Positions 1 through 61,800 of a stretch of DNA of 64,000 nt are shown in pieces. The translations under genes were made by a program, and so were the position numbers. Position 1 is the stretch's first letter; every line of letters begins with the position of its first letter. The notes under the pieces were generated by a model. That model was not told the origin of the DNA. It did no database searches and worked only from the letters and a program-made list of their open reading frames with translations. The stretch comes from Eledone cirrhosa (taxonomy: Eukaryota), in assembly GCA_964016885.1 (NCBI GenBank), contig OZ024741.1, positions 239,320,001 through 239,384,000 of the forward strand, written 5' to 3'.

Positions 1-310
1 CTTCAGGCAATATATTACATATTATCAATATAAATATAAAGGTGTCTAGAAATAAAGTTATGCTACCTAAATTTAAATATATTTCACCAGAAATATAACC
101 ATAATTAAATACCTCATTAGAGCAGAACATAAATGTTGAACATATCAATGTCTATAGAAAATGTAGAGCTGAGAATTTCTATCTTAAAATGTCTACTAAC
201 ATAATTTCTATATATATCATTTTATACTAAAATATGGCTAAATATATTTTGTAAGAGATCCATATCATTTGAATAAGTTGGAAATATAATATAAATATTC
301 ATAAACTTAC

Positions 311-720
311 ATTCATTGTGTAAAGTCCTTTGTTATAAACTGTGAGTTGGTCCCAATGTTCTGTTGTTAATGGTTGTCTGTGTCACTGCTGCTGTGGTGT
401 GACAATGGCTTCATGTTGATGGAATAGTGTTGGTAGTGAGTCAGTGGGAACCAGCAGTTCCTCTCAGTCTTTTCTGTGTGTGTGATGTTTACTGAGTGTG
501 AGTATATGTGTGTGTGTAAAAGAGAGTGAAGGATGGGTGATGCTTACTCCAGCCTCACTCAAATTGGAAAGAAGAGGGAGACAGAGACAAAGCACAATAT
601 CAGCTCCACTAATAGTCAGCCATAACCATCATCATCATAGTAATAAGTCTATATAACACCAACATGTCTGATGTAAAGAGACTGATATAGAAATAACCAA
701 TGTTTAAAGGAGATCTTAAA
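311..720 (-). promoter_or_regulatory. Conserved promoter + leader exon (copy 1) for the next Pcdh gene, which lies off the left edge
   Basis: One of 7 copies of a conserved block; minus-strand donor ATGAAT|GTAAGT (plus acttac 305-310); Inr-like TCAGT at 491-495; plus-strand motifs TGAGTCA, GATGCTTACTCCAGC, CAGCTCCACTAA, GTCTATATAA, CAACATGTCTGATGTA. Confidence 0.7.
367..414 (-). other. uORF1 in leader copy 1, MKPLSHHSSSDTDNH*
   Basis: CAAC-ATG start and TAA stop, 48 nt; recurs in the other leaders. Confidence 0.55.
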
Positions 721-1212: not shown

Positions 1213-1334
1213 TCAGTTAGTAATGACATCTGGTGTTGAAGGTAACTGTCTCTCTGGAGGTTTCACATATCTATCTTGGTATTGTTGTCTATCATTGTTC
1301 ACAACTGATGTATCATGTTGACTACCATAGATCC
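1213..1334 (-). CDS. Pcdh: Pcdh-A exon 4 (terminal): GIYGSQHDTSVVNNDRQQYQDRYVKPPERQLPSTPDVITN*
   Basis: TTTTCCAG acceptor, phase 1, 122 nt to TGA; paralogous exon behind every large exon. Confidence 0.88.
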
Positions 1335-1507: not shown

Positions 1508-1661
1508 CTGTCATTGCTGGTATTTCTTCATACTGTCTACTTGACCTTTCACTCCAGCACTGTCCACTACTCTTATGACTGGTCAATGTATCAGTGGGAT
1601 AGTTAGAAGATGGTCTGTTGTCTCCATAAGATGTCACCTCTATAGGTTGACTATATTTCTG
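1508..1661 (-). CDS. Pcdh: Pcdh-A exon 3: QKYSQPIEVTSYGDNRPSSNYPTDTLTSHKSSGQCWSERSSRQYEEIPAMT
   Basis: TTTTACAG|CAG acceptor, G|GTATGT donor, 154 nt (phase 0 to phase 1); conserved in all six genes. Confidence 0.9.
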
Positions 1662-2746: not shown

Positions 2747-5120
2747 TCTGGTTGATTTCTGAAGAGATCTGTTCATTGTTGATGTCTTCCAGTCTTCAGG
2801 AGAGTAATGACTTCTAGACTGACTATATCTGTCTATCTCTCCTCGATTACCTGACATCACAGATACACTGTTGTTACCTTGATAGATCAACTGTCTCATC
2901 TCATTACGACATTGGTATGCCTGTTTCTCTTCTATTGTTCTAGCTGAGTTATTTCTCACATTGTTACATCTCACAATACACAATGTTATAGAAACTACAA
3001 TAGCTATAGATACTATCACAGCTGCTACTACAATGATAATCAACAATGTTGCATCTATTGTGTTATCAGTTGGTACATGGACAGCTGTGAACATTGGTGA
3101 TGTCTTGTTACTAACAGTCAGTGTTAAAGAGACACTAGTTGTTGCTGACAGAACTGGAGTACCACTGTCTTTCACAACAAACTCCAGTTGATATAATCCA
3201 GCATCATTTTGGTAAACTGTGCGAGAGTAAGATAAGACACCAGTGAATGAGTCCAGTTTAAATAATTGTCTCTCATTACCTGAAAGGATTTCATACCTGA
3301 GAAAAGCATTCATGTGACTGTCTATATCAGAGGCTTTCAGAAGTGTGATGTCATTCTTACTTTGTGGATGATAGTGGACATCAAGAGTGAAAGGGTCAAC
3401 ACTAGGAAATGTAAAATATGGAGCATTATCATTTTTATCTAATACTTCCACTTCAACATTTACTGTGTTATTTAGAGATGGTGTTCCATTGTCTTTGACT
3501 AAAACCTCAAAATCATAGAAATCTCTGTGTTCTCTGTCTAAAGACTGGTTTGTTGAAATAAAGCCAGAGTTGATAATCTGGAATGGTAGATGATATTGGT
3601 GTTTATTTCTCAGATAGTAACTTAATTCACCTCCCTTACCAACATCTGGGTCTGTAGCATTGATAAAACCAATAGGGAAATTAGCTTTGTCATTCTCATA
3701 GGTAAGGAACTTGAATGTATCTTTGGTAAAGTGTGGTTTTACATCATTCACATCTAACACTTGTATTGAGAGATCTTTATCAGTTTTGAGAGGAGGTAAT
3801 CCTTTATCTTGACAGGAGACAGTAAAGTGATAATGTTCCTGTGTCTCTCTGTCTACTGCTTTCTTTAGAACTATTTTATATTCCTTAGATCCCATTGACT
3901 GTAGTTTGAATGTATCATGTTTAATATCACAGCTGACCTCTCCATTGTGTCCAACATCATTGTCAGTGACCATCACATAAGCAATGAAACTACCAACTTT
4001 GATATCTTCCAGAATGGTAGCTGTGTTGTGAATCTCTGTAGAAATATAGTTGACATCAATATTTGGAGGATTGTTCTGTTGGTTGATAACATTTACCATA
4101 ACAGTTGCTATGGAACTGAGAGGTGGGTTGCCTCCATCTCTGGCCTCTATATACAATTTAAAGAATTTCTTCTTTTCTAAAGCAGAATGTTTGGCTAAGA
4201 ATATTTCTCCAGTTTTCTGATCAACCTTGAAATAATTTATTGATTCTTTAGAGGTTAATGAACTGATAAAATAAGAAGTGTTACCATTTTCTCCAATATC
4301 AGTGTCTTTTGCCAACATGACAATAATTGGTATATTTCTTTTGTGGTTATTTTGTATGGAGATATTGTATGTCTTCTCAGAAAATATTGGTCTGTTATCA
4401 TTCTCATCTTTGACAGTAATGTGTACAGTTAAGACACCTTGTTTGGGTGGACTTCCTCCATCTTTAGCTATCACTTCTATGTCATAACTATCTTTTATCT
4501 CTCTATCTAACTTTCCATCTAACACAATTTCTAATGAGAGCAACCTATCTGCTATCTGAAATGTAGACAAAGAAAACTGATTGCTACTACCTTTCAATTC
4601 ATAATTCACTAGTCTGTTTTGTAAACCAACATCATCATCAATTGCATTGGGTATTGATCGTTTTGTCCCCTTGCCCTCAGTTTCATAAAAATCTAAATTA
4701 ATTTCTTCAACAGGAAACTCAGGTGTATGGTCATTGATGTCTTCTATCATTACCTTAATCTTTAATATCTTTATAAATTTCTCTGCTCTATGAACTGCTA
4801 CCTTAATTGTGTGAGAACATTCTTTCTCAAAACTACACAGAGACTCAGCATCCAGTGTTTGTGTAGTATATATCTTTCCATTACTGGTCACATTAAATAG
4901 CTGTGTCCCCTTCTGTTGTAACTGACTAAATGATAATAATGCAATGTCCTGTAACTGTGAATCAGCAGTAATATCTCCTATATTGATAATTCGATGGTTT
5001 TCTTCTTCCACATGATAAACAATGTCTTCTTTAGAGAGTGAATAGTGAAGTAGAGACAGTAATATCCATATCTGTATTAAAACCATCTTTGTTAGTGGAG
5101 TTAGTTGTGAGTTAAGCAAC
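2747..5120 (-). CDS. Pcdh: Pcdh-A exon 2: signal peptide, 6 cadherin repeats, TM, proximal cytoplasmic domain (likely Met at 5086)
   Basis: 812-aa ORF with DINDH/DENDN/LDRE/DxD motifs, EC1 C-X5-C (LCSFEKEC) and hydrophobic TM; acceptor TTTCCAG at 5121-5127, phase-0 donor AGA|GTAAGT at 2741-2746. Confidence 0.95.
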
Positions 5121-7622: not shown

Positions 7623-8050
7623 ATTCATTGTGTAAAATCCTTTGTTATAAACTGTGAGTTGGTCCCAATGTTCTGTTGTTAATGGTTGTCTATGTCACTG
7701 CTGCTATGGTGTGACAATGGCTTCATGTTGATGGAATAGTGTTGGTAGTGAGTCAGTGGGAACCAGCAGTTCCTCTCAGTCTTTTCTGTGTATGTGTGAT
7801 GTTTACTGAGTATGGGCATATAAGTGTGTGTGTATGTAAAAGAGAGTAAAGGATGGGTGATGCTTACTCCAGCCTCACTCAAATTGGAAAGAAGAGGGAG
7901 ACAGAGACAAAGCACAATATCAGCTCCACTAATAGTCAGCCATAACCATCATCATCATAGTAATAAGTCCAACACCAACATGTCTGATGTAAAGAGACTG
8001 ACAGAAATAACCAATGTTTAAAGGAGATCTTAAATTAACAAAATATTACT
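7623..8050 (-). promoter_or_regulatory. Promoter + leader exon 1 of Pcdh-A (copy 2); uORF1 at 7679-7726 (MKPLSHHSSSDIDNH*)
   Basis: Donor ATGAAT|GTAAGT (7617-7622); Inr-like TCAGT 7805-7809; near-identical to copy 1 but lacks the TATAT of GTCTATATAA. Confidence 0.7.
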
Positions 8051-9954: not shown

Positions 9955-12319
9955 CCTTGTAGATTTCTGAAGAGATCTGTTCATTGTTGATGTCTTCCAG
10001 TCTTCAGGATTGTAATGGCTTCTAGACTGACTATATCTGTCTGATATCTCTCCTTGATTACGTGACATCACAGATACACTGTTGTTACCTTGATAGATCA
10101 ACTGTCTCATCTCATTATGACATTGGTATGCCTGTTTCTCTTCTGTTGTTCTAGCTGAGTTATTTCTCACATTGTTACATCTCACAATACACAATGTTAT
10201 AGAAACCACAATAGCTATAGATACTATCACAGCTGCTACTACAATGATAATCAACAATGTTGCATCTATTGTGTTATCAGTTGGTACATGGACAGCTGTG
10301 AACATTGGTGATGTCTTGTTACTAACAGTCAGTGTTAAAGAGACACTAGTTGTTGCTGACAGAACTGGAGTACCACTGTCTTTCACAACAAACTCCAGTT
10401 GATATGATCCAGCATCATTTTGGTAAACTGTGCGAGAGTAAGATAAGACACCAGTGAATGAGTCCAGTTTAAATAATTGTCTCTCATTACCTGAAAGGAT
10501 TTCATACCTGAGAAAAGCATTCATGTGACTGTCTATATCAGAGGCTTTCAGAAGTGTGATGTCATTCTTACTTTGTGGATGATAGTGGACATCAAGAGTG
10601 AAAGGGTCAACACTAGGAAATGTAAAATATGGAGCATTATCATTTTTATCTAATACTTCCACTTCAACATTCACTGTGTTATTTAGAGATGGTGTTCCAT
10701 TGTCTTTGACTAAAACCTCAAAATCATAGAAATCTCTGTGTTCTCTGTCTAAAGATTGGTTTGTTGAAATAAAGCCAGAGTTGATAATCTGGAATGGTAG
10801 ACGATATTGGTGTTTATTTCTCAGATAATAACTTAATTCACCTCCCTTACCAACATCTGGGTCTGTAGCATTGATAAAACCAATAGGGAAATTAGCTTTG
10901 TCATTCTCATAGGTAAGGAACTTGAATGTATCTTTGGTAAAGTGTGGTTTTACATCATTCACATCTAACACTTGTATTGAGAGATCTTTATCAGTTTTGA
11001 GAGGAGGTAATCCTTTATCTTGACAGGAGACAGTAAAGTGATAATGTTCCTGTGTCTCTCTGTCTACTGCTTTCTTTAGAACTATTTTATATTCTTTAGA
11101 TCCCATTGACTGTAGTTTGAATGTATCATGTTTGATATGACAGCTGACCTCTCCATTGTGTCCAACATCATTGTCAGTGACCATCACATAAGCAATGAAA
11201 CTACCAACTTTGATATCTTCCAGAATGGTAGCTGTGTTGTGATTCTCTGTAGAAATATAGTTGACATCAATATTTGGAGGATTGTTGTGTTGGTTGATAA
11301 CATTTACTGTAACAGTTGCTATGGAACTGAGAGGAGGGGTGCCCCCATCCCTAGCCTCTATAAATAATTCATAAACAACTCCTTGTAAATCTCTGTTTTC
11401 TTTTATAAAAATCTCTCCAGTGTCTGGTTTCAATTGAAAATGTTTACTATCCATGTCTGATGTCATTGGACTAAAATAATATAATATTCTGCTATTGTAC
11501 CCACTATCAGAATCCTCTGCTGATATTATAACAATTGGTGTGTTGCTTTTATGTGTTTTTGCCACAGATATATTATATTTCCTTTTTGAAAAGACGGGTC
11601 GATTATCATTTTCATCTTCGACTATAAGCTTTACATTCAACACAGTCTGCTTTGCAGGAACTCCACCATCTTCTGCAATAACTTCTACATTGTATATTTC
11701 TTTTACCTCTCTGTCTAACTTTTCTTGGAGAACAATATCAAGGTATGACACCCCATCAGCACTTTTGAAAACTTCCAGAGAAAAGGAGTGATTAGATTTT
11801 TGTAATTTATAATTAATTAATCTGTTTTTAAAACTGACATCTTTGTCAATGGCATTTGGAATGGATTTTTTCATTCCTTTGCCATCTCCTTCTCTAAAGT
11901 GTAAAGTTATTTCTTTCTCAGGAAACTCAGGTTGATGGTCATTGATGTCTTCTATTATTATTTTAACTTTTAAAATTCTTTCAAAAGTTTTCTCTTTATG
12001 AACAGCAACTTTAACAATTTTAGAACATTCCTTATTATATCTACACAGTGACTCAGCATCTATTGTTTGAACAGTGTATATTTTCCCTGTCTGAGTAACA
12101 TTAAATAATTCTCTCCCCTTCTGATGCAGTTGATTAAATGTAACCATTTTCAGATCGTCTGGTGAAAAGGAGTTCAAAAACTGTTTATTAGTGGCAATAG
12201 ATCCTATATATGTAACAGGACTGTTTTCTTCTTTCACCTGGTAAGTGAGGTTTAGACAGTAGTAACAATGAATTATCAATGATAAAAGCCAGAGAACTCT
12301 CAACATCTTTAACATTTCA
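9955..12319 (-). CDS. Pcdh: Pcdh-B exon 2 (EC1-6, TM; Met at 12315)
   Basis: 804-aa cadherin ORF; acceptor TTTTTTTACAG ending at 12320, donor AGG|GTAAGT. Confidence 0.95.
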
Positions 12320-14413: not shown

Positions 14414-14900
14414 ATTCATTGTGTGTAAAAAATCCTTTGTTATAAACTGTGAGTTGGTCCCAATGTTCTGTTAATGGTTGTCTGTGTCACTGCTGCTATG
14501 GTGTGACAATGGCTTCATGTTGATGGAATAGTGTTGGTAGTGAGTCAGTGGGAACCAGCAGTTCCTTTCAGTCTTTTGTGTGTATGTGTGATGTTTACTG
14601 AGTGTGAGTGAGAGAGAGAGAAGGATGGGTGATGCTTACTCCAGCCTCACTCAGACAAGATGATGCTTTCCCCTCTCACAGAAGAGGAGTGGGAGAGAGA
14701 GGTAGGGAATGCTTACTCCAGCACAACTTAAGTTAGATGTTATGTTTCCCCTCAGAAAGAGAGAGTGGGAGAAGGGAGGGGATGTAAATACAATATATCA
14801 GCTCCACTAACAGTCAGCCATAATATGTCTATATAATACTAACATGTCTGATGTAGAGAGACTGACATAGAAATACTGAGAAGATAGAGGTTATATTAAC
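14414..14900 (-). promoter_or_regulatory. Promoter + leader exon 1 of Pcdh-B (copy 3); uORF1 at 14471-14518
   Basis: Donor ATGAAT|GTAAGT (14408-14413); Inr-like 14597-14601; the ATGCTTACTCCAGC...TTTCCCCTC module is duplicated (~14632 and ~14710). Confidence 0.7.
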
Positions 14901-15980: not shown

Positions 15981-16037
15981 CCATATAATACACACAAATT
16001 AACAACAAACAGATAAAAATACACTAACAATAATAAT

Positions 16038-16220
16038 TGTTTCTACTTTTGGCACAAGGCCAGCAATTACCCAGTACATTACTGGTACTTTATTTTATCG
16101 ACCCCGTAAGGATGAAAGGCAAAGTTGACCTCGGCGGGATTTGAACTCAGAATAGAAAGGGCCGTAACTCTATGCGTCAAAGCATGACGTCCGACCCTCT
16201 GATACTGCCAATCCACCACC
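16038..16220 (-). mobile_element. tRNA-derived SINE (family 1), young copy
   Basis: Minus strand has A-box-like GGTGGATTGGCAG, B-box GAGTTCAAATCCC and central GCCTTTCATCCTTACGGGGTCGATAAAATAAAGTACCAG (resembles the Meta/MESC SINE domain, from memory); direct repeat TACACTAACAATAATAAT at 16020-16037 and 16225-16242. Confidence 0.8.
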
Positions 16221-16674
16221 CTTCTACACTAACAATAATAATGAAGGAGAATATTTAGTTTTCTATTACAATTCTAACCATATCTAGGAAACCTTTGAGG
16301 GTATATTAAAGTGGTACTATTTTATAGGAATATTAAATCATTCCCGGTACTTAATTGGTATTATATTTTATTGAATAGAGAAGGATGAAAAACATAGTTT
16401 ACCCTGACAAGATTTAAACTCAGAAAATATAGAACATAGAATAAACAAATGTCACAGTTATTTTTCCCAATGTTTCTGCCAATCCAGACAATGATGATAA
16501 TAATGGGGAAAAGGTATAATCAGTTATATCAACCTCAGTATATGACTGGTACTCTAATTTGTCAATCCATTTAACCTTTCAGGGTCCTCGGAATGATAAA
16601 TGGCAAAGCTAGCCTCAGAACATAAATAGCTGTTATGATAATGATGATAATAACTTGGGTAAATATTTTTTTAC

Positions 16675-18129: not shown

Positions 18130-20534
18130 CTTTGTGGACTTTTGAAGAGATCTGTTCATTGTTGATGTCTTCCAGTCTTCAGGATAGTAATGACTTCTAG
18201 ACTGACTATATCTGTCTGATATCTCTCCTCGATTACCTGACATCACAGATACACTGTTGTTACCTTGATAGATCAACTGTCTCATCTCATTACGACATTG
18301 GTATGCCTGTTTCTCTTCTGTTGTTCTAGCTGAGTTATTTCTTACATTGTTACATCTCACAATACACAATGTTATAGAAACCACAATAGCTATAGATACT
18401 ATCACAGCTGCTACTACAATGATAATCAACAATGTTGCATCTATTGTGTTATCAGTTGGTACATGGACAGCTGTGAACATTGGTGATGTCTTGTTACTAA
18501 CAGTCAGTGTTAAAGAGAGACTAGTTGTTGCTGACAGAACTGGAGTACCACTGTCTTTCACAACAAACTCCAGTTGATATGATCCGGCATCATTTTGGTA
18601 AACTGTGCGAGAGTAAGATAAGACACCAGTGAATGAGTCCAGTTTAAATAATTGTCTCTCATTACCTGAAAGGATTTCATACCTGAGAAAAGCATTCATG
18701 TGACTGTCTATATCAGAGGCTTTCAGAAGTGTGATGTCATTCTTACTTTGTGGATGATAGTGAACATCAAGAGTGAAAGGGTCAACACTTGGAAATGTAA
18801 AATATGGAGCATTATCATTTTTATCTAATACTTCCACTTCAACATTCACTGTGTTATTTAGAGATGGTGTTCCATTGTCTTTGACTAAAACCTCAAAGTC
18901 ATAGAAATCTCTGTGTTCTCTGTCTAAAGATTGGTTTGTTGAAATAAAGCCAGAGTTGATAATCTGGAATGGTAGACGATATTGGTGTTTATTTCTCAGA
19001 TAATAACTTAATTCACCTCCCTTACCAACATCTGGGTCTGTAGCATTGATAAAACCAATAGGGAAATTAGCTTTGTCATTCTCATAGGTAAGGAACTTGA
19101 ATGTATCTTTGGTAAAGTGTGGTTTTACATCATTCACATCTAACACTTGTATTGAGAGATCTTTATCAGTTTTGAGAGGAGGTAATCCTTTATCTTGACA
19201 GGAGACAGTAAAGTGATAATGTTCCTGTGTCTCTCTGTCTACTGCTTTCTTTAGAACTATTTTATATTCCTTAGATCCCATTGACTGTAGTTTGAATGTA
19301 TCATGTTTGATATCACAGCTGACCTCTCCATTGTGTCCAACATCATTGTCAGTGACCATCACATAAGCAATGAAACTACCAACTTTGATATCTTCCAGAA
19401 TGGTAGCTGTGTTGTGATTTGGTGTAGAAATATAGTTGACATCAATATTTGGAGGATTGTTGTGTTGATTGATAACATTTACCATAACAGTTGCTATGGA
19501 ACTGAGAGGAGGACTACCTCCATCTCTAGCTTCAATATATAGTTTGAATGTTTCTATTTCATTCAAGTTTGTAAACTTAGCAAAAAATAACTCTCCAGAC
19601 ATTTTATCCAACTTAAAATATTGTCTGTTTTTTTCCAATGTCTTGGGACTGAAATAGTAAGAAATCTTTCCATTTTCACCAATATCCAAATCTTTAGCCG
19701 ATACAACAACAATAGCTTTGTTTTTGCCATGCATTTTCTTTATGGAAATATTGTACAGTTTTTCATGAAATATGGGTAAATTATCATTTGCATCTTGAAC
19801 TTGTATATTTACATTCAAGATACTTTCTTTGGATGGAGTCCCTCCATCCTTAGCAACAACCTCCAAACTATATTGATCCTTCACTTCTCTATTTAATTTA
19901 CTTTCTAGAACAATCTCTAGCCGAGATATTCCATCAGCTCTTTTAGAAACTAACAATGAAAATATTTTCCCATTCTTCTTTAAATGATAACTGATAACAC
20001 TATTTATAACTCCAACATCTTTGTCAATGGCATTTGGGATGGATTTTTTCATTCCTTTGCCATCTCCTTCTCCAAAGTGTAAAGTTATTTCCTTGTCTGG
20101 AAATTCAGGTTGATAGTCATTGATGTCTTCTATAACGACCTTAATTTTTAAAATTTTCAAGAATGTATTCTTTTCATGAACAGCAACTTTAACCTCCCGA
20201 AAACATTCCTTTTCAAAAGTACAAAGAACTTCAGCATCTAATGTTTGTATTGTATAAAGTTTGCCATTTTCAGACACATTAAATAGTTGTGTTCCTTTAA
20301 GTTTCAGTTGATTAAATGTAATATGACCTACGTCTCCAGGTTGAACTGTATCTTGAAATTGTGGATCAGTTGTAATATCCCCAACAAATGTATGTGGTCT
20401 TGTCTCTTCCTTCACCTTGTAAATTATGTTCAAGCCAAGACAGCAGTGGAAGAAGCTAATTAACAAAAATGAAGTCTGCAACATATTTTCTTTTGTTATT
20501 GGAAACATTGAATAAAATCAAATTTTAACAGATT
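18130..20534 (-). CDS. Pcdh: Pcdh-C exon 2 (EC1-6, TM; Met at 20508 or 20484)
   Basis: 818-aa cadherin ORF; poly-T..TTTCAG acceptor ending at 20535; donor AAG|GTAAAT. Confidence 0.95.
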
Positions 20535-20769: not shown

Positions 20770-21474
20770 GTAGTGGATTGGCAAAATTGTTCGTGTGTCA
20801 GATGAAATGTAATGTATTGCAAGTATTTCATTACAACCCTCTGTGTTCTGGTTTCAAATCCAGCCAAGGTCAATTTTGCCTTTCATTTTTTCAGGATAGA
20901 TGAAATAAAGTACCAGTCAAGTACTGGGATTGATTTAACCAACTTTACCCTTTCCTAAAATATTTGTTGGCGTTGTGCTTCAATTAGAAATCTATATTAT
21001 ATAAGTTCTGAATTCAAATCCCTCTGAGGTTAACTTTGCTTTTCATCCTTTGGGGAGTTGATAAAATATAGTACCAGTAAAGTACTGGGGTCAATATAAT
21101 CAATTTTCCCTTCCCCGAAAACTGCTGCCCTTGCGCTTATATTAGAATCCATTATTATAGGTGGATTGTCTGAGTTCAAATCCCGCCGAGGTTAAATTTG
21201 CCTTTCATCCTTATGGGGTCGATAAAATAAAGTACCAGTAATACACTGAGAAAATTGCTGGCCTTGTGCCAAAAGTAGAAACAATTATTATAGGTGGATT
21301 GGCAGAGGGTCAGTCGCCATGCTTTGACGCATAGAGTTACGGCCCTTGCCATTCTGAGTTCAAATCCCGCCGAGGTTAACTTTGCCTTTCATCCTTACGG
21401 GGTCGATAAAATAAAGTACCAGTAATGCACTGGGTAATTGCTGGCCTTGTGCCAAACGTAGAAACAATTATTAT
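20770..21474 (+). mobile_element. Head-to-tail array of 4 family-1 SINE copies
   Basis: Four repeats of TTCAAATCC..GAGGT..TTTGCCTTTCATCC..GATAAAATAAAGTACCAG separated by ATTATTATA. Confidence 0.8.
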
Positions 21475-24204
21475 AATATAGAATAAGAAATCATTATTAT
21501 CATGTATAATAACATGTACTTACTGATATTAACAATTATAATATAGAACAAGTACTTACTAATATCATAAAATCAACAATAATAATACACCATATGTGTC
21601 TTTGTACATTTATTTATAAATATGCAATCTTTAACTCTTTAAAATTTACATTCATAATAATTTACACACATTTGAACGTGCATGCTGAACATTTATGTAA
21701 TAAATTATTAAAATATCATTATCTTTAAGCACTCCCATATGCCAGTAATCAACATAAACTATAGGATTTCTCTTATGCAAACCGTCCATTTATCAAAACA
21801 CAAATTTCCTAGTTTGTATTGTATGATTTTTCATATATCTGGTAATCCTGGGATATATGGGCACACCAATCCTGGACTCCAAAAATATCTTTCACACTAC
21901 TGTCATCATTACTGATGGCATGGGTCCACTAGTAAGAATTATATTATAGAATAAGAACTGACAAATATCTTAGATAACAATTATTATAGAGAATAAAAAA
22001 TACTTACCAATATCTTAGAATAATAATTCCAAATTATATTTCTCACTTAGATTGAAAATTAATTCCATACAAAACAAAAGAGAATTTTATAATGGATTAG
22101 TAGAAATGTAGAGATTAAAATAAAATATCTTAGATTGTTCAACATGACTCAAAAATGCAAACCTGCACTAAATTAATATGTATTTGTCACAAAAAGATGA
22201 CAAACCCCAAATCCCTCAATGGCCTCACAGCAGCTACAAATCCTAACATGAAAATATATATTGAATTAAAAACATGTTTTTGTAAAACCTTTGTTGTTTG
22301 TTTGTTTATTTATATCCTAGCAGCTATCTTAGTTGGAAGCAACATATTCTCTCAAAAGGTTTGCTAACATATTGACACAATGATAAGAAAACAATAAGAG
22401 GCTGTTCTAGTTTGCTTGAAGCATTGTGTAAAGTGTAAAAGATAGTGTATTGTTTGAAGGCTATCACAATGTGAAGTGGATGGTAAATGCTAAAAATGAT
22501 GTTGGGATGTTATTTTTCAGCTTTTTAGATGCTCATAAGAGCATCCATTTTGGGATAAAATTCCTTCATCAAAAAAATCAATTAGTTTGGAGCTGTATAT
22601 TTTTGTCACTTTTAAGCTGCCATTTTTTGAAATTATATTTTTCAAAAAATATATTTCGGTTGAGGGCAGTTCTTTAACAGAGTCTTTAGAGTGTCAGACA
22701 AATGCATAGCAATATTTTTCTGGCTCTTTACGTTCTGAGTCCAAATTATGATGAGGTCAATTTTGCCTTTCATCCTTCTGGGATCGATAAAATAAAGTAT
22801 CAGTCAAATTGCTGGGCTTGTGCCAATGTCAGAAATCAATATTGTGGTATTCATTTTAACAGTTCAGCTCTATCTCTGAGATGTTATATACAGATGTAAC
22901 TGACAAATTAACTGTGATAAACTATAATAATAATCTGAAATATTACAGAAGAAATAATATACTTTACAATTGGAGTGATAAGATGAGTTGAATAATTAAT
23001 GTATGACATTGGATTAAAATACCTAACAATTAATATAATTATTCAATATTTTGAACAATGAAAATAAACTAAGAGTCAAATGTAGGTTGTTAAGAGTACT
23101 TCATTGTTTTATGATCATTTCAGAGGGCTGATTGATCATGGTAAATTGAATGATTGAACACCAGGTAGTGGTTATGTCACCACCTATTTTTAGTGCCAAT
23201 ATTTGAGATCAATCACTCCATCTTCCTCATTGGTATTAAAATTAATTTGATAAACTAAATATTCAGGCGGGGTGGGGGGGGGGGGGGGGGGGGGGGCAAT
23301 TATTTATTTTTCTTCTTTTTAGTAAATTGAAAATGTAATATATTTGTTAAACAGAAATATATTCCAACTATTTCAAAACATTTGTTCTTTTAAAAAATCT
23401 TATAATTTAAAAAATGCTGTTCAAAGTCTTTGTAGAGAAAAAATCAGAATAAATATTCAGTAGAAATTATTTGTTATAGGTTTTACAATATATATATAAG
23501 TGAGAGAGAGAGAGAGAATGTAAATACACAAACACATATATATATATATATACATTTGTATTTCAATAACCAAATCAATACCTCAATATTTATGTGATTA
23601 CAAGAATATGAAATAACATTAAACGTATTGAGAGGAGATACTATGAAGATACACTTCATCACTAATGATTATTTTTATAACATACTGCCATTTTATGTAA
23701 AAATACAATTGTAGCTATACCAAAGACCTTAAAAATGTATCACTCTTAGAAGAAGAAAAAAAGGTATCATATTAAAATATTTTAATAAATAAAACTATAT
23801 AATTATTTTACACTATTAAGTTGTCCAAAAATCTCACAAATCTCAAATATAAATAGGCGAGATTTAAAACAACATGCAATCCAAACCTCCCACAGAATCA
23901 ACCATGCCATGACAAATTGTATTAAATGTATGGAAATTTCTTTAATATTTGGAAATGCTGAAACATAATTTGTCTTGCAATTATAATTTAATCCAGTTGA
24001 AATAGAATTATTGAAATTATAAACTGAAAAATCTCATAATAATGTTTCCTTTTCACCATTCCTAAGAAAAATGGTTCGTTGTTCTGTACAATTTTTCAAA
24101 GGAAAAAAATTTAAAAAAAACAAAAACAAAAATGTAAACAGATTTCTCATTTATAATATAGTTATAAGAAATATGAAGAATGTAACATAAATGAGACTAC
24201 TTAC

Positions 24205-24575
24205 ATTCATTGTGTAAAAGCCTTTGTTATAAACTGTGAGTTGGTCCCAATGTTCTGTTGTTAATGGTTGTCTGTCACTGCTGCTATGGTGTGACAATGG
24301 CTTCATGTTGATGGAATAGTGTTGGTAGTGAGTCAGTGGGAACCAGCAGTTCCTCTCAGTCTTCTGTGTATGTGTGATGCTTACTGCAATGTGTCTGTGT
24401 AAGTGCTATTTCCAACCTCAGTCAGGCGAGGTAAGGGTGGGTGATGCTTACTTCAGCCCCAGTCAGACTAGATGTGTTTCCTCTCAGTGTAAAGTGAGAG
24501 AAGACAATAATAGCTCCACTAATATTTTTACTTGATAAGACTATATAACACCAATATGTCTGATGTAGAGAGAAT
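24205..24575 (-). promoter_or_regulatory. Promoter + leader exon 1 of Pcdh-C (copy 4); uORF1 frameshifted and extended (24205-24306)
   Basis: Donor ATGAAT|GTAAGT (24199-24204); 2-nt deletion in uORF1; Inr-like site altered. Confidence 0.68.
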
Positions 24576-25289: not shown

Positions 25290-25560
25290 CTACAAAATAG
25301 AGATTAGAAAAACATAGGATAATCTTTAATGTAACGTGTATATTTATGTATGAATCACATGTTTTTCCACAAAAGTATGGAAAAAAATGTGCATAAAACT
25401 TCACTAATCAATCTATTTATATATAAAAATATAACATACACAGTAAATGAATGGAAAACAGAAGTGTGACATATATGGTATCAAGTCTCTAATTGAGCTA
25501 CCTCTCCTGAAATAGATACAACATAACAGACATTATAATGATAAAATAGCCATTCTCTAC

Positions 25561-25696
25561 CTGATACAGCTGGTATTTCTTCATAATATGTACTTGACCT
25601 TTCACTCCAGCATTGATCACTACTCTTGAGACTGGTCACTGTGTCAGTGGGGTAGTTAGAAGATGATGCCACTGCTATTGGTTGACTATATTGCTG
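25561..25696 (-). CDS. Pcdh: Pcdh-D exon 3 (18-nt in-frame deletion; ...SLKSSDQCWSERSSTYYEEIPAVS)
   Basis: TAGCAG acceptor, G|GTAGAG donor, 136 nt. Confidence 0.85.
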
Positions 25697-27422: not shown

Positions 27423-29833
27423 CATTATACATTTTGGTAAACTTCTGTTGATTGCTGATGTATTCCAGTCTTCAGGAGAGTAATGGCTTCTGAACAGACT
27501 ATATCTGTCTGATATCTCTCCTCGATTGCCTGACATCACAGATACACTGTTGTTACCTTGATAGATCAACTGTCTCATCTCATTACGACATTGGTATGCC
27601 TGTTTCTCTTCTGTTGTTCTAGCTGAGTTATTTCTTACATTGTTACATCTCACAATACACAATGTTATAGAAACCACAATAGCTATAGATACTATCACAG
27701 CTGCTACTACAATGATAATCAACAATGTTGCATCTATTGTGTTATCAGTTGGTACATGGACAGCTGTGAACATTGGTGATGTCTTGTTACTAACAGTCAG
27801 TGTTAAAGAGACACTAGTTGATGCTGACAGAACTGGAGTACCACTGTCTTTCACAACAAACTCCAGTTGATATAATCCAGCATCATTTTGGTAAACTGTA
27901 CGTGAGTAAGATAAGACACCAGTGAATGAGTCCAGTTTAAATAACTGTCTCTCATTACCTGAAAGGATTTCATACCTCAGAAGGGCATTTATGTGACTGT
28001 CTAGATCAGAGGCTTCCAGAAGTTTGATGTCATTCTTACTTTGTGGATGATAGTGGACATCAAGGGTGAAAGGGTCAACATTAGGAAATGTAAAATATGG
28101 AGCATTATCATTTTTATCTAATACTTCCACTTCAACATTCACTGTGTTATTTAGAGATGGTGTTCCATTGTCTTTGACAAAAACCTCAAAATCATAGAAA
28201 TCTCTGTGTTCTCTGTCTAAAGATTGGTTTGTTGAAATAAAGCCAGAGTTGATAATCTGGAATGGTAGACGATATTGGTGTTTATTTCTCAGGTAATAAC
28301 TTAATTCACCTCCCTTACCAACATCTGGGTCTGTAGCATTGATAAAACCAATAGGGAAATTAGCTTTGTCATTCTCATAGGTAAGGAACTTGAATGTATC
28401 TTTGGTAAAGTGTGGTTTTACATCATTCACATCTAACACTTGTATTGAGAGATCTTTATCAGTTTTGAGAGGAGGTAATCCTTTATCTTGACAGGAGACA
28501 GTAAAGTGATAATGTTCCTGTGTCTCTCTGTCTACTGCTTTCTTTAGAACTATTTTATATTCCTTAGATCCCATTGACTGTAGTTTGAATGTACCATGTT
28601 TGATATTACAGCTGACCTCTCCATTATGTCCAACATCATTGTCAGTGACCATCACATAAGCAATGAAACTAGCAACTTTGATATCTTCCAGAATGGTAGC
28701 AGTATTGTGATTATGTGTAGAAATAAAATTAACATCAATATTCGGAGACCTGTTGTGTTCGTTGATAACATTTACAATAAGAGTTGCTATGGAACTTAGA
28801 GGAGGAATGCCACTATCTCTGGCTTCTATGAATATTTTCAATGTATCTGTTTTAACTAAATTTGAATATCTAGACAATAAAATTTCTCCACTTGTTTCAT
28901 TTAAGGTAAAATACCTACTTGATATTTCAGATGTGATAGGACTAAAATAGTATGCTACATCACCATTGCTGCCAATATCAAAGTCATGAGCAGATAAAGT
29001 AACTATAGACACAAGTTTTGGATGTGTGCTGTTCACAGTAATTCTATAAGTTTTCTCGGAAAAGATAGGCAAATTGTCATTTTCGTCTGTGATAATTATT
29101 TCAACATTTAGAATTGCTTGTTTGGGGGGAGTTCCTCTATCTTCAGCAATAACCTCAATATTGTAGATAGCCTTAAATTCTCTGTCTAATTTCCTTTCCA
29201 AGTGGATATCTAGGTGAGAAGTTCCATCAGCTCTTTTAAAATCTTTCAAGATAAAGGGATAATTGTTTTTCTTCTTTAACTTGTATGTAATTAAGCGGTT
29301 TTGGCTCCCGACATCATAGTCCATTGCATTTGGAATTGATTTTCTTCTACTTTTGCCATCTGTTTCAGAAAACTGTATGGTTATTTCCTTAACAGGGAAT
29401 TTAGGTGAATGGTCATTGATGTCTTCTATTATGACTTTTATTTTTAGGATTTTTATGAATTGTTTTCCTTTGTGAGCAGCAACATTGATTGTTTCAACAC
29501 AGTCTTTATCAAGAATACAGAGGCTCTCAGCATCCAATGGATTAATAGTGAACATTTTTCCTGGCTTGGTGATATTAAATAGTTGTCTTCCTATCTGTTG
29601 TAGCTGAGTGAATCTAAGTAAATGTCTCTCGTTGTGTTCTAAACTGTCCCAGAGGCCAGAATCTTCAGCAATATCTCCAATGTATGGATTAGCATTGTTT
29701 TCTTCCTCCACAATATAGATAAGCTCTTCATTATAACAACAGCAAATGAAAGACAGGATGATACAGAAATATATTAACATTTTTAGCCAAGTGAGTGAAT
29801 GACTCAACACTCCAAAAAAGTAACTGTCTTCAT
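27423..29833 (-). CDS. Pcdh: Pcdh-D exon 2 (EC1-6, TM; Met at 29780)
   Basis: 798-aa cadherin ORF; acceptor TCTTTCAG ending at 29834; donor ATG|GTAAGT. Confidence 0.95.
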
Positions 29834-38498: not shown

Positions 38499-38850
38499 AT
38501 TCATCATACGTTCCCAATGTTCTGTTAATGGTTGTCTGTGTCACTGCTGCTATGGTGTGACAATGGCTTCATGTTGATGGAATAGTGTTGGTAGTGAGTC
38601 AGTGGGAACCAGCAGTTCCTCTCAGTCTTCTGTGTGTATGTGTGATGTTTACTGAGTGTGAGTGTATATATACAATATATAAGTGTGAAAGAGATAAGGG
38701 AGTGTGGTTCTTACTCTAGTCTCAATCAGACTAGATGATGTGTTTCCCCTCACAGAGGAGAGAAAGGGAGAGAAGACACACAATATCAGTTCCACTAATA
38801 GTTTGCAATAATAAGCCTATATAATACTAACAGCATGTGTGATATAGAGG
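38499..38850 (-). promoter_or_regulatory. Promoter + leader exon 1 of Pcdh-D (copy 5); uORF1 at 38525-38572
   Basis: Donor ATGATGAAT|GTAAGT (38493-38498) retained despite an internal deletion; Inr-like 38651-38655. Confidence 0.68.
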
Positions 38851-45406: not shown

Positions 45407-47815
45407 CTTCATAGATTTCTGAAGTGTTCTGTTCATTGTTGATGTCGTCCAGTCTTCAGGATAGTAATGACTTCTAGACTGACTATATCTGTCTGATATC
45501 TCTCCTTGATTACCTGACATCACAGATACACTGTTGTTACCTTGATAGATCAACTGTCTCATCTCATTACGACATTGGTATGCCTGTTTCTCTTCTGTTG
45601 TTCTAGCTGAGTTATTTCTCACATTGTTACATCTCACAATACACAATGTTATAGAAACCACAATAGCAATAGATACTATCACAGCTGCTACTACAATGAT
45701 AATCAACAATGTTGCATCTATTGTGTTATCAGTTGGTACATGGACAGCTGTGAACATTGGTGATGTCTTGTTACTAACAGTCAGTGTTAAAGAGACACTA
45801 GTTGTTGCTGACAGAACTGGAGTACCACTGTCTTTCACAACAAACTCCAGTTGATATGATCCAGCATCATTTTGGTAAACTGTGCGAGAGTAAGATAAGA
45901 CACCAGTGAATGAGTCCAGTTTAAATAACTGTCTCTCATTACCTGAAAGGATTTCATACCTGAGAAAAGCATTCATGTGACTGTCTATATCAGAGGCTTT
46001 CAGAAGTGTGATGTCATTCTTACTTTGTGGATGATAGTGGACATCAAGAGTGAAAGGGTCAACACTAGGAAATGTAAAATATGGAACATTATCATTTTTA
46101 TCTAATACTTCCACTTCAACATTTACTGTGTTATTTAGAGATGGTGTTCCATTGTCTTTGACTAAAACCTCAAAGTCATAGAAATCTCTGTGTTCTCTGT
46201 CTAAAGACTGGTTTGTTGAAATAAAACCAGAGTTGATAATCTGGAATGGTAGATGATATTGGTGTTTATTTCTCAGATGATAACTTAATTCACCTCCCTT
46301 ACCAACATCTGGGTCTGTAGCATTGATAAAACCAATAGGGAAATTAGCTTTGTCATTCTCATAGGTAAGGAACTTGAATGTATCTTTGGTAAAGTGTGGT
46401 TTTACATCATTCACATCTAACACTTGTATTGAGAGATCTTTATCAGTTTTGAGAGGAGGTAATCCTTTATCTTGACAGGAGACAGTAAAGTGATAATGTT
46501 CCTGTGTCTCTCTGTCTACTGCTTTCTTTAGAACTATTTTATATTCTTTAGATCCCATTGATTGTAGTTTGAATGTATCATGTTTGATATTACAGCTGAC
46601 CTCTCCATTGTGTCCAACATCATTGTCAGTGACCATCACATAAGCAATGAAACTACCAACTTTGATATCTTCCAGAATGGTAGCTGTGTTGTGATTTGGT
46701 GTAGAAATATAGTTGACATCAATATTCGGAGGATTGTTGTGTTCATTGATAACATTAACATGAACAGCTGCTATAGAACTCAGTGGGGGATTTCCACCAT
46801 CTCTGGCTTCTATATACAGTGTATACATTATCTTTTCTCTAATATTAATTTCATCAATCAAAAACATATCTCCAGTTGTTTTATTCAAGCCAAAATATGT
46901 TTTGTCGATATCAGAAGTCATTGGACTAAAATAATAAGAGACTATCCCATTTTTTCCACTGTCTTTATCCTTTGCAGCAAGAGTTAATATTGGTTTGTAT
47001 ATTTTATAAATATTTTGAATAGAAATGTTGTATATATCATTAGAGAAGACAGGTAAATTATCATTCTCATCTCCTACTGTTATTTTCACCTCTAAGAGAC
47101 ACTCTTTTGGTGGAGTCCCTCCATCTTTAGCTGTTACTTGAATATGGTAAATGTCTTCTAACTCTCTGTCTAATTTTTCATTCAAAACAATTTCCAATCT
47201 AGATATTCCATCAACTCTTTTAGAAACAGACAATGCAAATTTTGCAGAATCATTTTTTAAATCATATGTAATCAATCTATTTTGATATCCCACATCTTTA
47301 TCAACAGCATTAGGTATGGCCTTTTTCATACCTCTACCATCTCCTTCCCTAAACCCTAGAGTGATGTCTTTCTCAGGAAACTCAGGTTGGTGATCATTGA
47401 TGTCTTCTATTATGACTTTAATTTTTAATATTTGTATAAATGTTTTATGTTTACGGATAGCAATTTTCACAGTTCTATAACATTCAGTATTATACCGACA
47501 CAAAGCTTCAGCATCCAGAGTCTCAGCTGTGTACAATTTTCCTGCTTTTGTGACATTAAATAGCTGTGTTCCTTTTTGTATTAGTTGATTAAATGTAAAC
47601 AGACTGGCATCACCAGTTAAGATAGTTTTGGTGAAATGAGGTTGAATAGCAATGTCACCTATATAAGAATAAGGCAAATTCTCTTCCTTTACATGAAAGA
47701 TAATGTCTTTACATAAACAACAATGTATACACAATAGAAGTATGTAAACTGTTGCAAACATGTTTGACATTTGATGAAGAAGGGCTTTTATATAATAAAA
47801 TTTTATCAACTGCAT
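45407..47815 (-). CDS. Pcdh: Pcdh-E exon 2 (EC1-6, TM; Met at 47815, 47770 or 47761)
   Basis: Cadherin ORF; acceptor TTTCCTTTCAG ending at 47816, so the first 36 codons of the 865-aa ORF are intronic; donor AAG|GTAAGT. Confidence 0.95.
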
Positions 47816-49064
47816 CTGAAAGGAAAGCAAAATAAAATGAAAATCCATTTTCCCAATTTTACTGCAAACTTTCAAGGTTAAAGATTTTGAAAAGTTTGAG
47901 TTCAAGACCAAAAACATGGCCATACTAAAATTAAAATATATAAATATTCAATTGAAGTCCACTGAAGTTTATCATTTTAAAGAAATACCTTAATACCTAA
48001 TCAGTAATAAACAAAACTTGTCACATTTTTTTTTTTACTCCAAGTAATTTAATAAGATATTCAAATATTTTTAGTTTAACCTATTCACTACAATTCAGCT
48101 GTGATAGACTGTTGAGGATTATTAATCTTATTTCAGTATTGATAAACAATAGCATTGTTGGGTATAGGTTTACAAAGAGTCAATTACTCGTCACTGCATT
48201 TCTTATGATTAGGGTAATAAAGGAGTGCCTATAATACAGTGCAGGACAAATATAACAAAGGACTTCATTTGAAGAGCACCTGTTTTTTACCGTTGTTTTC
48301 ACATACACACATGATAAAAGATATGGAACAGATTTATTAACAGATAAATAATCAGTCCTATACTATGTTGAAATATGCAAAAGATATAACAATTATGAAA
48401 AAAATATTGAAACATATCTCACCTATCTTTTTAGATGAAAATGTTCTGTTCTGAGGCTGGGAAAATCTAGCTTCTGTTTTATTCATCTCTTCATTTAGTT
48501 TCAAGATGATCAACCTGCAAGGTTAGCAAAACATTAATGTGATTTAATAAGATCTATATAAATGTTAGATGAAATGCATTGTATCTGAAGCTTTTAAATA
48601 AAATATAATGATATGTAAAATGATGTCAACGGCAATTTGTAGTTTGTTGTAATAGGTTTTTTTTATAATTTATTAACAATGGTTAAGAGCTGGATTAAGC
48701 TGGCATGCCAAACAAAGAAATAAACAAATTAAGATTGCAGAAGGCATGGTCTACTGGCTGAAGTGTTAGCCAGGCCGTGGTTAAATTGTTGTGTTCCATT
48801 TTAGTTAATGGTTGTGGAGCAAAAGCAAAATGGTTGTTTACCTTACCACAGTCAAGCTGCAAGAGAATGAATTTATTAAAAGTCGCGGGGAAAGTCTTAG
48901 TTTGGGTGGAAGTTGAAAATACATATCCGTGCGCGGATAGTGATTGGCCTAACTTAGCCAAATCATGCATGGACAGGGTATCAATGCGCCAAAGAAAAGT
49001 AGCTTGCTACATATCTTTTCTGACTTTTTATATTCTGAGTTCAATTTCCACCTAGGTGCCTAAA

Positions 49065-52848: not shown

Positions 52849-53620
52849 ATTGACTGTGTGTTGGTCCCAATGTTCTGTTGTTAATGGTTGTCTGTGGACA
52901 ATGGCTTCATGTTGATGGAATAGTGTTGGTAGTGAGTCAGTGGGAACCAGCAGTTCCTCTCAGTCTTCTCAATGTATTTGTGATGTTTACTGAGTGTGTG
53001 TGTGTATATATATATACATATGTGTGTATGTGTAAGAGAGAGAGAGAAAAGGATGGGTGATGCTTACTCCAGCCTCACACAGACTAGATGTTATTTCCTT
53101 CACAGAGAAAAAGGAGAGAGAGAAGACAATAACAGCTCCACTAACAGTTAGCCATAATATGTCTATATAATACCCGCCTTACCTAAATATATAGTAAAAC
53201 CTACTCCAGCCAGTAGGCATCTCTAACAAATACACCCCGTCCCACCACCACCACCCCGTTCTATGTAAAGTTATGTTGGTGCCGCGCCATCCAGGCCGAA
53301 ACAAATGAGATCGTGTAGGTGTCACGACAAAAAAACACACAGTCCACGCTGTAATGTGGCCGTGTAGGCAACACGGTAAAAACCTCCCAGACCCACACTG
53401 TAAATGTGGTTGGTGTTAGGAAGGGCATCCAACTGTAGAAAACCTGCCAGGCAGTCCTATGCGAGCAAGACAATCACTCTTGCCTCAAGTGGGACTACCC
53501 CCGTCCAAACCCATGCAAGCGTGGAACACGGACGTTAAACGTTGATGATGATGATGAATACCAACATGTCTGATGTAGAGGGACTGACATAGAAATAGAG
53601 AATGTTTTAAGATGTTATAT
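52849..53620 (-). promoter_or_regulatory. Promoter + leader exon 1 of Pcdh-E (copy 6), split by a retroposon; uORF1 at 52881-52910 (MKPLSTDNH*)
   Basis: Donor GTCAAT|GTAAGT (52843-52848); Inr-like 52989-52993; conserved motifs resume at 53557. Confidence 0.68.
53175..53556 (+). mobile_element. Family-3 retroposon inserted in the Pcdh-E promoter block
   Basis: (GAT)n tail, TSD AATACC (53169-53174 / 53557-53562); removing it restores GTCTATATAATACCAACATGTCTGATGTAG. Confidence 0.85.
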
Positions 53621-56745: not shown

Positions 56746-59156
56746 CCTTGTGGATTTTTGGAGAGATCTGTTCATTGTTGATATCTTCCAGTCTTCAGGA
56801 TAGTAATGGCTTCTAGACTGACTATATCTGTCTGATATCTCTCCTTGATTACCTGACATCACAGATACACTGTTGTTACCTTGATAGATCAACTGTCTCA
56901 TCTCATTACGACATTGGTATGCCTGTTTCTCTTCTGTTGTTCTAGCTGAATTATTTCTTACATTGTTACATCTCACAATACACAATGTTATAGAAACCAC
57001 AATAGCTATAGATACTATCACAGCTGCTACTACAATGATAATCAACAATGTTGCATCTATTGTGTTATCAGTTGGTACATGGACAGCTGTGAACATTGGT
57101 GATGTCTTGTTACTAACAGTCAGTGTTAAAGAGACACTAGTTGTTGCTGACAGAACTGGAGTACCACTGTCTTTCACAAGAAACTCCAGTTGATATGATC
57201 CAGCATCATTTTGGTAAACTGTACGAGAGTAAGATAAGACACCAGTGAATGAGTCCAGTTTAAATAATTGTCTCTCATTACCTGAAAGGATTTCATACCT
57301 GAGAAAAGCATTCATGTGACTATCTATATCAGAGGCTTTCAGAAGTGTGATGTCATTCTTACTTTGTGGATGATAGTGGACATCAAGAGTGAAAGGGTCA
57401 ACACTAGGATATGTAAAATATGGAGCATTATCATTTTTATCTAATACTTCCACTTCAACATTCACTGTGTTATTTAGAGATGGTGTTCCATTGTCTTTGA
57501 CTAAAACCTCAAAGTCATAGAAATCTCTGTGTTCTCTGTCTAAAGATTGGTTTGTTGAAATAAAGCCAGAGTTGATAATCTGGAATGGTAGACGATATTG
57601 GTGTTTATTTCTCAGATAATAACTTAATTCACCTCCCTTACCAACATCTGGGTCTGTAGCATTGATAAAACCAATAGGGAAATTAGCTTTGTCATTCTCA
57701 TAGGTAAGGAACTTGAATGTATCTTTGGTAAAGTGTGGTTTTACATCATTCACATCTAACACTTGTATTGAGAGATCTTTATCAGTTTTGAGAGGAGGTA
57801 ATCCTTTATCTTGACAGGAGACAGTAAAGTGATAATGTTCCTGTGTCTCTCTGTCTACTGCTTTCTTTAGAACTATTTTATATTCTTTAGATCCCATTGA
57901 CTGTAGTTTGAATGTATCATGTTTAATATTACAGCTGACCTCTCCATTGTGTCCAACATCATTGTCAGTGACCATCACATAAGCAATGAAACTACCAACT
58001 TTGATATCTTCCAGAATGGTAGCTGTGTTGTGATTCTGTGTAGAAATATAGTTGACATCAATATTTGGAGGATTGTTGTGTTGGTTGATAACATTTACCA
58101 TCACAGTTGCTATGGAACTGAGAGGTGGGTTGCCTCCATCTCTGGCTTCAATATATAATTTTAAAGAGTTCTTTGTCTCAATTTCTAATGATTGTGTTAA
58201 GAATATTTTTCCACTATATTCTTCTAAATTAAAATATCTTTTCATTTTCTCTGAAGTTTTCCTTGCAAAATAGAAAGCTATATTACCATTCCTACCAATA
58301 TCTAAATCATTGGCAGATAATGTCACTACTGGAATATTCTTTTTATGTTTATGTTCTATGGAGACATTATAGATACTTTGGGAAAATTGTGGTCTGTTGT
58401 CATTTTCATCTTTCACAGATATATTAACATTTAAAATACTTTGCTTTGGTGGAGTTCCTCCATCTTTAGCAATGACCTCAATATTATAGCTGTCTTTCTT
58501 TTCTCTGTCTAATTTATCTTCTAAGATAATTTCTAATGTTGACATTCCACCTGCTTGTTTGGCAACTGCCAAAGAAAAATGCCCATTATCTTTTTTTAAC
58601 TCATATTTAATTAAGCTGTTTTGATATCCAATGTCTTTGTCAGCAGCATTGGGTATTGATAGTTTTGATCCTTTGCTGTCTCGCTCTGAAAACTGTATAT
58701 TTACTTGTTCAGTTGGAAACTCAGGTTGGTGGTCATTGATGTCTTCTATTATGACTTTAATTTTTAATATCTTCATAAATGTCTTGGATTTGTGAACAGC
58801 AACTTTCACTATTTCAAAACATTCTTTCTCATAACTACACACAGACTCAGCATCCAATGTCTGAACAGTGTACAGTTTACCTGTTTTTGTCACATTGAAC
58901 AATTGTTCTCCCTTTTGTTGTAGTTGACTAAATGTAATTAAATCCTTTTTCTTTAAGAAGGAGTTATCTGATGTCTGTAAGTCAGGAGCAATGTCCCCTA
59001 TATAAGTATAGGGATTACTCTCTTCTTTAACATGGTATGTGATATGTTCACTTAGATAACAGTGGAAGAAAGTCAGTAAAATACACAGAAATAACAACAT
59101 CTCTGCTCTTGATGTTAATACAGTATACAGAGGAAACACAGCTTCAAATATTTAAT
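56746..59156 (-). CDS. Pcdh: Pcdh-F exon 2 (EC1-6, TM; Met at 59100)
   Basis: 802-aa cadherin ORF; acceptor TTTATTTCAG ending at 59157; donor AGG|GTAAGT. Confidence 0.95.
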
Positions 59157-61401: not shown

Positions 61402-61800
61402 ATTCATTGTGTAAAATCCTTTGTTATAAACTGTGAGTTGGTCCCAATGTTCTGTTGTTAATGGTTGTCTGTGTCACTGCTGCTATGGTGTGACAATGGT
61501 TTCATGTTGATGGAATAGTGTTGGTAGTGAGTCAGTGGGAACCAGCAGTTCCTCTCAGTCTTCTGTGTATGTGTGATGTTTACTGAGTGTGAGTGTGTGT
61601 GAGAGAGAGGTGGGGGAGGGTGATGCTTACTCCAGCTTCACTCAGACTAGATGTGTTTCCCCTCACAGAGAAGAGGGAGAGAGAGAGAAGATGCAATATC
61701 AGCTCCACTAACAGTCAGCCATAATATATCTATATAATACCAACATGTCTGATGTAGAGAGAGGTTATATTAACAAAATATGGCTGATGTTGTTAATGTG
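61402..61800 (-). promoter_or_regulatory. Promoter + leader exon 1 of Pcdh-F (copy 7); uORF1 at 61458-61505
   Basis: Donor ATGAAT|GTAAGT (61396-61401); Inr-like 61582-61586; full motif set. Confidence 0.7.

Follow-up and report, generated by a model that had tools for sequence, protein, structure and literature searches.

What is the near-identical block of ~180 bases that stands before each gene of a 43-gene tandem protocadherin array in the octopod Eledone cirrhosa, and what keeps it alike among old paralogues? We addressed this in the window, a stretch of 64,000 nucleotides whose positions are used below unless a coordinate begins with C2 or G000:C2, and in a survey of 664 kb around it. 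The reading we favor, and hold to be probable though well short of certain, is that the block is each gene's own promoter together with a non-coding first exon that splices onto the large exon next to it, that it is homogenised by conversion, and that it carries a selected 25-base element. Papers are cited for the sections consulted.

The first-pass annotation had described a block of ~400 bp recurring seven times in the window, and the recurrence was borne out by a 48-nt core that matched exactly in all seven copies (starts at 415, 7727, 14519, 24307, 38573, 52911, and 61506), with none in 100 shuffles. Each copy had also been said to end at a minus-strand donor, AAT followed by GTAAGT, beyond which, one recently copied pair aside, similarity is lost. 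This is what we found in 7/7 copies (donor GT at 310, 7622, 14413, 24204, 38498, 52848, and 61401, minus strand), with an ungapped identity of 0.25-0.40 among seven old lineages from 10 nt beyond the donor. All six large exons in the window have the expected pyrimidine/AG acceptor ahead of the signal peptide (5120, 12319, 20534, 29833, 47815, and 59156 for genes 1-6, minus strand), and their leaders lie 2.1-8.7 kb upstream, in agreement with the 2-9 kb claimed. The statement that the block precedes every protocadherin in seven copies needed trimming, as there are seven blocks but only six large exons; copy 1 of the leader (311..493, minus strand; donor GTAAGT at 305-310, 5′ end assumed at TCAGT) serves a gene ~5 kb outside the window on the left. 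The other leaders and the large exons that they serve, all on the minus strand, are copy 2 (7623..7807) for gene 1 (2747..5120; signal peptide, six cadherin repeats, and transmembrane segment), copy 3 (14414..14599) for gene 2 (9955..12319), copy 4 (24205..24385, without an exact TCAGT) for gene 3 (18130..20534), copy 5 (38499..38653, shortened in its 3′ part) for gene 4 (27423..29833), copy 6 (52849..52991, with a unique end via two deletions) for gene 5 (45407..47815), and copy 7 (61402..61584, with contig cover in three RNA-like runs) for gene 6 (56746..59156).

The survey of 664 kb yielded 48 blocks, 47 of which have a GT(A/G)AG donor, and a block lies upstream of all 46 full large protocadherin exons. 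The annotation had proposed searching the genome with the core as a check of protocadherin specificity. A 41-nt core gave 39 matches in 3.0 Gb, all on one strand, within 390 kb, and in this array, against 0 for the reversed control; BLAST of the block returned 47 candidates, and 40/40 scored matches were inside the array. Both the donors (47/48) and the array-only core matches support a protocadherin-specific leader exon, and a genome-wide repeat, named in advance as an outcome that would undo the idea, was not what we found. We rejected a dispersed repeat or mobile element, since 39/39 core matches and 77/77 matches of the 25-nt element fall on one strand at protocadherin genes. A coding exon was likewise rejected, given frame-breaking indels and peptides that occur in none of the listed homologues. 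The block probably comprises a promoter followed by a non-coding first exon. Individual copies vary: a 2-nt deletion in leader copy 4 (24205-24385) opens the upstream frame through the donor, and the block near G000:C2:239619973 (L066) has no donor and its gene has an intact large exon. At G000:C2:239262191-239275477 (L037, L038), three consecutive blocks stand before one diverged gene 5-19 kb downstream, possibly as alternative promoters or orphan leaders.

In transcription order the repeated unit is block, large exon, exon 2, and terminal exon. Each of the 43 units has its own exon 2 and its own exon 3, on which the earlier annotation was silent, and shared constant exons are absent. For gene 1 these are a second, cytoplasmic coding exon (1508..1661, minus strand), with homologues near 8822, 16672, 25558, 40846, and 54768, and a terminal coding exon with the stop codon (1213..1334, minus strand) that matches the C-terminus of octopod homologues, as the 3′ exons of the other units also do. 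The genes are head-to-tail, multi-exonic, and full-length, as in other coleoid and octopod protocadherin arrays. Their products have cadherin repeats, an N-terminal Cadherin_2 domain, and a transmembrane segment (Pfam, six minus-strand frames); over their 3′ halves, the top homologues, from Argonauta hians, Octopus sinensis, and O. vulgaris, share 88-93% identity with them. At 1658-1665 and at homologous exon-2 acceptors, two acceptors stand in tandem (ACAG-CAG); some homologous proteins include one glutamine that others omit (QKYSQ/KYSQ), in keeping with alternative use of the two sites. Within the array the leader is 1-15 kb upstream of the coding exon across an intron, with outliers up to 57 kb, and the stop codon of one gene precedes the next block by a median of 662 nt (range 516-1834 nt).

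Four runs were compared over 46950-63000 on contigs, none recorded as RNA and giving no starts, strand, or level. Run X17 had a depth of 1.4-5.9 in three clean intron bins versus 133 in the leader bin, and the much larger run X14 had 25-98 in those same intron bins; X17 behaves like RNA in being intron-poor. In two X17 contigs the match to the genome breaks off precisely at 47815 and at 59156, which the pyrimidine/AG scan also chose as the acceptors of genes 5 and 6 (2/2 covered acceptors). Beyond these points the contigs have 133 and 30 extra letters, respectively, known by their lengths. Counts of 31-letter words across the array predict an overhang of 30 for leader 7 and of 41 for leader 6, with its unique end. 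For gene 5 this leaves 92 of the 133 letters to explain, and an intron scan found a 92-nt exon as one of five strong candidates of 60-135 nt. This predicted additional 5′ UTR exon (48423..48514, minus strand) has a CTAAC branch word, a TTGCAG acceptor, and a GTGAGA donor after TAG, and the depth of its bin is 8.3 versus 8.5 expected. The possibility that the 133 letters are the entire leader 6 up to the start site was dropped because the word counts permit only 41. The overhang lengths support splicing from the adjacent leader, including the 92-nt exon for gene 5, and we infer that the extra letters are that leader. The leader has cover as well in X1 and X5, two runs from other organisms; in X1, from a relative, contigs have 4 mismatches in 159 leader letters versus 46 in 1171 letters of EC4-tail coding contigs, so the leader is at least as conserved there as coding sequence.

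The same contigs bear on a very unlikely alternative, in which the upstream last exon runs into the block and is spliced to the next gene or in which leaders join distant genes. Stop codons are only 516-1834 nt from the next block, PCDH read-through fusions were curated out in O. vulgaris (PMC9712504), and RNA-like contigs from upstream terminal exons reach the promoter-side zone, extending to 53536 and 61760. Some read-through is likely, and because these contigs enter the zone and depth is present at 61637, any start placed near TCAGT is a putative one. Against read-through as the general arrangement, AATAAA is enriched before the block, with 57 in stop-to-block intervals versus 21 in an equal length of intron and at least one in 30/41 intervals. 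Diverged blocks also stay with downstream genes 5-57 kb away and up to 17.5 kb from any upstream terminal exon, and the overhang of 41 letters is specific in its fit to leader 6, the adjacent one. Where the array begins at its 5′ end, a decayed gene fragment lies ahead of the first block, so this end is no clean test.

To follow divergence along the unit, we compared 42 of the 48 units, all but five outlying blocks and one without a donor, and defined as old the 381 of 861 pairs with an EC1-3 protein divergence >0.3. In old pairs, fourfold-site divergence was 0.533 in EC1-3 versus 0.049 from EC4 to the tail, a contrast with the same trend in the sister array described below (array B). Divergence was 0.033 in the leader, 0.060 in exon 2, 0.259 in the 230 nt upstream, and 0.504 in the intron, meaning that the upstream zone diverges about half as much as the intron. 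Near the YIEARDGG motif, nucleotide identity between old paralogues switches sharply from ~60-70% to ~98-100%; the switch can be seen at 45407-46900 and in the matching 3′ halves of the six large exons, silent sites included. Exon 2 of gene 4 (25558-25725) is the least homogenised in the array (0.145). Homogenisation of silent sites in one part of a gene is an accepted sign of gene conversion in vertebrate arrays (PMC4978886), and conversion has been suggested for coleoid protocadherins (PMC9068888). Since the leader diverges about as much as converted silent sites while EC1-3 is saturated, it is likely that gene conversion, and not recent duplication, keeps the leaders of old paralogues alike. 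Co-conversion through cDNA was rejected, as being an outlier in one of the leader, the 3′ coding half, and exon 2 showed no significant correlation with being one in the others (rho 0.15-0.25, p > 0.1; computed with leader boundaries that were afterwards corrected for the divergence figures).

These numbers also suit a plainer account, in which the block is an ordinary 5′ end that was copied by tandem duplication, homogenised by conversion, and has no role beyond that of a basal promoter. Leader divergence equals that of converted silent sites, two further arrays (B and C, below) each have their own homogenised cassette, and full-gene duplication with conversion has already been proposed for coleoids (PMC9068888). 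We regard this account as possible but somewhat unlikely, given that divergence in the upstream 230 nt is half that of the intron, that the leader is conserved at least like coding sequence in the relative, and that the 25-nt element persists in seven lineages despite differing flanks and spacer.

Upstream of every copy lies a conserved promoter-side zone. In copy 1 it spans 494..720 (minus strand), with motif blocks separated by variable CA/CT spacers, and overlaps the 3′ flank of the upstream gene. The motifs that the annotation had placed in all copies are present, but not in every one: TCAGTAAACA occurs in 6/7 window copies, exact GCTTACTCCAGC and CAGCTCCACTAA are both missing from copies 4 and 5, copy 2 is without CTATATAA, and an insertion of ~350 nt splits the upstream part of copy 6. 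This insertion is a GC-richer repeat (53200-53560) that separates the ATGTCTGATGTAG word from the rest of the zone, and RNA-like cover of gene 5 persists despite it. Transcription may start near the TAAACATC/TCAGT word, although TCAGT is missing from 8/48 blocks. The identical core lies ~30-80 nt downstream of this proposed start and is therefore exon sequence, not promoter. A TATA-like word was rejected as a TATA box, since it lies ~155 nt upstream of the proposed start, not at -30, and copy 2 has lost it by deletion. On sequence grounds we also rejected a mini-intron that would run from GTAAGC to the CAG within TCAGT; it would be 34-88 nt long, under 50 nt in 12/34 cases, and its AG is absent in diverged copies.

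Core identity had been taken as a sign of equivalent, competing promoters. As stated, that argument was not supported, because the identical part is exon and the promoter-side 230 nt diverge along the gene tree, tracking EC1-3 divergence with a rho of 0.73, compared with 0.19 for the leader. The promoter side is under constraint without being equivalent.

The annotation had further pointed to a GGAAC-N5-GTTCC hairpin and an AP-1 word; both exist in the window cores, but neither is retained in diverged copies or in the sister array. The hairpin was rejected as the conserved feature because it is missing from 4/48 blocks, including the three most diverged, and from array B. RNA folding energy in the leader was no better than that of shuffles (z +0.28 and +0.79; array B -1.03). 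AP-1 was rejected as the key element because TGACTCA, although found in 44/48 blocks and in a single diverged outlier, does not occur in two other lineages. In array B the word becomes TGACGTG. We take TGACTCA and TGACGTG to resemble bZIP sites, CATTGT a Sox site, and TAAACA a forkhead site. Neither the hairpin nor the AP-1 word, TCAGT, or the upstream ATG is kept in every lineage.

What persists is a bipartite element, CCATCAACAT-N5-CATTGTCACA, which forms the peak of invariant columns across seven lineage representatives while its spacer and flanks vary. In copy 1 it occupies 398..422 (minus strand), and in other copies 7710-7734, 14502-14526, 24290-24314, 38556-38580, and 61489-61513; in copy 6 it is interrupted by a deletion. 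At ≤1 mismatch the genome holds 77 matches (control 0), all on the minus strand within C2:239.14-240.23 Mb and all before protocadherins: 46 in array A, to which the window belongs, 30 in array B, and one ahead of a lone gene situated between the arrays. Array B (C2:239.91-240.28 Mb), identified by protein search and then surveyed, has 33 large exons and its own homogenised cassette before 30 genes, which a profile of the window's block finds at E ~1e-8. This cassette contains CCAAT words and TGACGTG, and the array (G000:C2:239910000-240282000, L092-L129) has its own 3′ exons. At fourfold sites of the 3′ half, arrays A and B differ by only 0.27-0.32, and for this reason the A-B pair alone is no proof of selection on 20 bases. 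The element was not found within 30 kb upstream of 6/7 dispersed protocadherins. Array C (C2:252.3-252.5 Mb), the third array, did not yield it either; its cassette is of another kind, with a donor and a second exon at the 5′ end. An apparent likeness of the array-A core to the array C 3′ UTR (E 7e-6 one way) was rejected, the reciprocal search being no better than reversed controls. The 25-nt element inside the exon is likely under selection as a shared regulatory site and may bind a common factor.

A location inside the exon also admits an effect in the mRNA, with the core acting through an upstream frame (MKPLSHHSSSDTDNH) or as a site for an RNA-binding protein and throttling translation of all isoforms. 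All 48 array-A blocks have an upstream ATG, and a 15-codon length of the frame is kept in 39/42 units. Yet array B and the singleton lack the upstream ATG and keep both 10-mers, the leader has no folding signal, and the upstream-frame peptide is in no homologue among the 120 proteins listed, which together make this role distinctly unlikely.

A final alternative sees the blocks as equivalent promoters in competition for a shared enhancer, such that each neuron expresses a random subset, convergent with vertebrates but without CTCF. There is one module per gene in the same orientation, the element is common to 77 genes, and private EC1-3 with a common EC4-tail mirrors vertebrate arrays (PMC4978886). 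A 13-nt CTCF-like core, however, needed 3-4 mismatches in 42/42 cassettes, no better than shuffles and with none within 2 mismatches; CGCT occurs in 2/42; and 36/42 cassettes have at most one CpG (none in 480 nt in 21/42, one in 15/42), counts that do not provide for the CpG-methylation switch of the vertebrate CSE. Moreover, the promoter side is not homogenised (0.26), and O. vulgaris neurons each express ~21 PCDH, of which some are ubiquitous and others enriched by cell type (PMC9712504). We consider competition for an enhancer unlikely. The full octopod version, a CTCF-independent choice among the interchangeable promoters of ~77 genes in two sister arrays, placing a random EC1-3 subset on a common EC4-to-tail chassis, is equally doubtful; random promoter choice is possible, with no support of its own.

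Several known systems share parts of this layout. Vertebrate clustered Pcdh genes are also tandem and co-oriented, each with its own promoter and a shared short element, use one large exon for six cadherin repeats and the transmembrane segment, and have homogenised EC4-6 with diverse EC2-3 (PMC7811963, PMC4978886). Pcdh-beta genes are similarly complete and independent, with no constant region (PMC7811963). Pcdh-beta genes, however, are single variable exons, whereas the octopod genes have a leader exon and two near-identical 3′ exons of their own. The vertebrate CSE lies ~200 bp before the start codon, whereas the octopod element is in a separate non-coding exon 1-15 kb off, has no CGCT/CTCF match and almost no CpG, and is not followed by shared constant exons. 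The octopod module resembles the vertebrate layout of one element per gene; by the tests run, it is not the CSE system. In chelicerate sDscam genes, alternative promoters feed shared exons. They belong to an unrelated protein family, and the octopod genes, unlike them, are complete; both are invertebrate tandem arrays of recognition receptors with many promoters (PMC6339937). A further parallel is found in the octopod sub-arrays of O. bimaculoides, A. fangsiao, as well as O. sinensis; these are multi-exonic full-gene duplicates in one orientation with gene conversion likewise suspected (PMC9068888, PMC9795677). In the consulted sections of these two papers, no promoter, leader exon, or shared upstream element is described, and "promoter" has 0 occurrences in those of PMC9795677. 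In the sections consulted, the octopus protocadherin literature that we searched (public transcript models may already show a 5′ exon) reports counts, layout, and expression, including PCDH cell-type markers (10.1101/2022.06.11.495763, 10.1101/2022.05.26.490366). In that literature, promoters and leader exons are not reported, and a conserved promoter/leader module of full-gene duplicates is not found described.

Under the favored reading of a promoter plus non-coding first exon, transcription of each gene would begin at the block from a promoter of its own, splicing would join the leader to the adjacent large exon, and most transcripts would end before the next block. Conversion would hold the leader, EC4-tail, and exon 2 in common and leave EC1-3 private; in this way the array would combine a front end and an EC4-to-tail part shared among the genes with recognition domains that are private to each. 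The bipartite element may give the genes shared regulatory input, as a DNA site or in the mRNA. If a common factor acts there, this shared input would lead to co-expression in overlapping sets, and expression differences would be set by the more divergent 230 nt upstream. The vertebrate pattern of private EC1-3 and converted EC4-tail arises here without constant exons or a CTCF box. The finding supplies positions for ~77 candidate promoters and a 25-nt element, a concrete handle on how arrays of neuronal identity are switched on, and the shared leader offers a universal 5′ primer site for reading the isoform of each neuron. It carries two warnings: these promoters would escape a scan limited to the 2 kb ahead of the start codon, and gene models can become fused through the leaders and 3′ exons that genes share.

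Other features were observed around the arrays. Array C (G000:C2:252320000-252520000, L131-L150) has 18 large exons and two 5′ exons that are non-coding, along with a leader rich in CAG/AAC and a very small terminal exon that encodes seven residues. The first intron of gene 4 contains a tandem array of a 25-nt unit in 33.6 copies (32875-33719). Lastly, a dispersed, SINE-like repeat of ~180 nt occurs in both orientations at 16021-16244, 21298-21475, 35862-36079, 40347-40534, 55667-55849, and 63847-64000 and is extremely abundant in all four runs.
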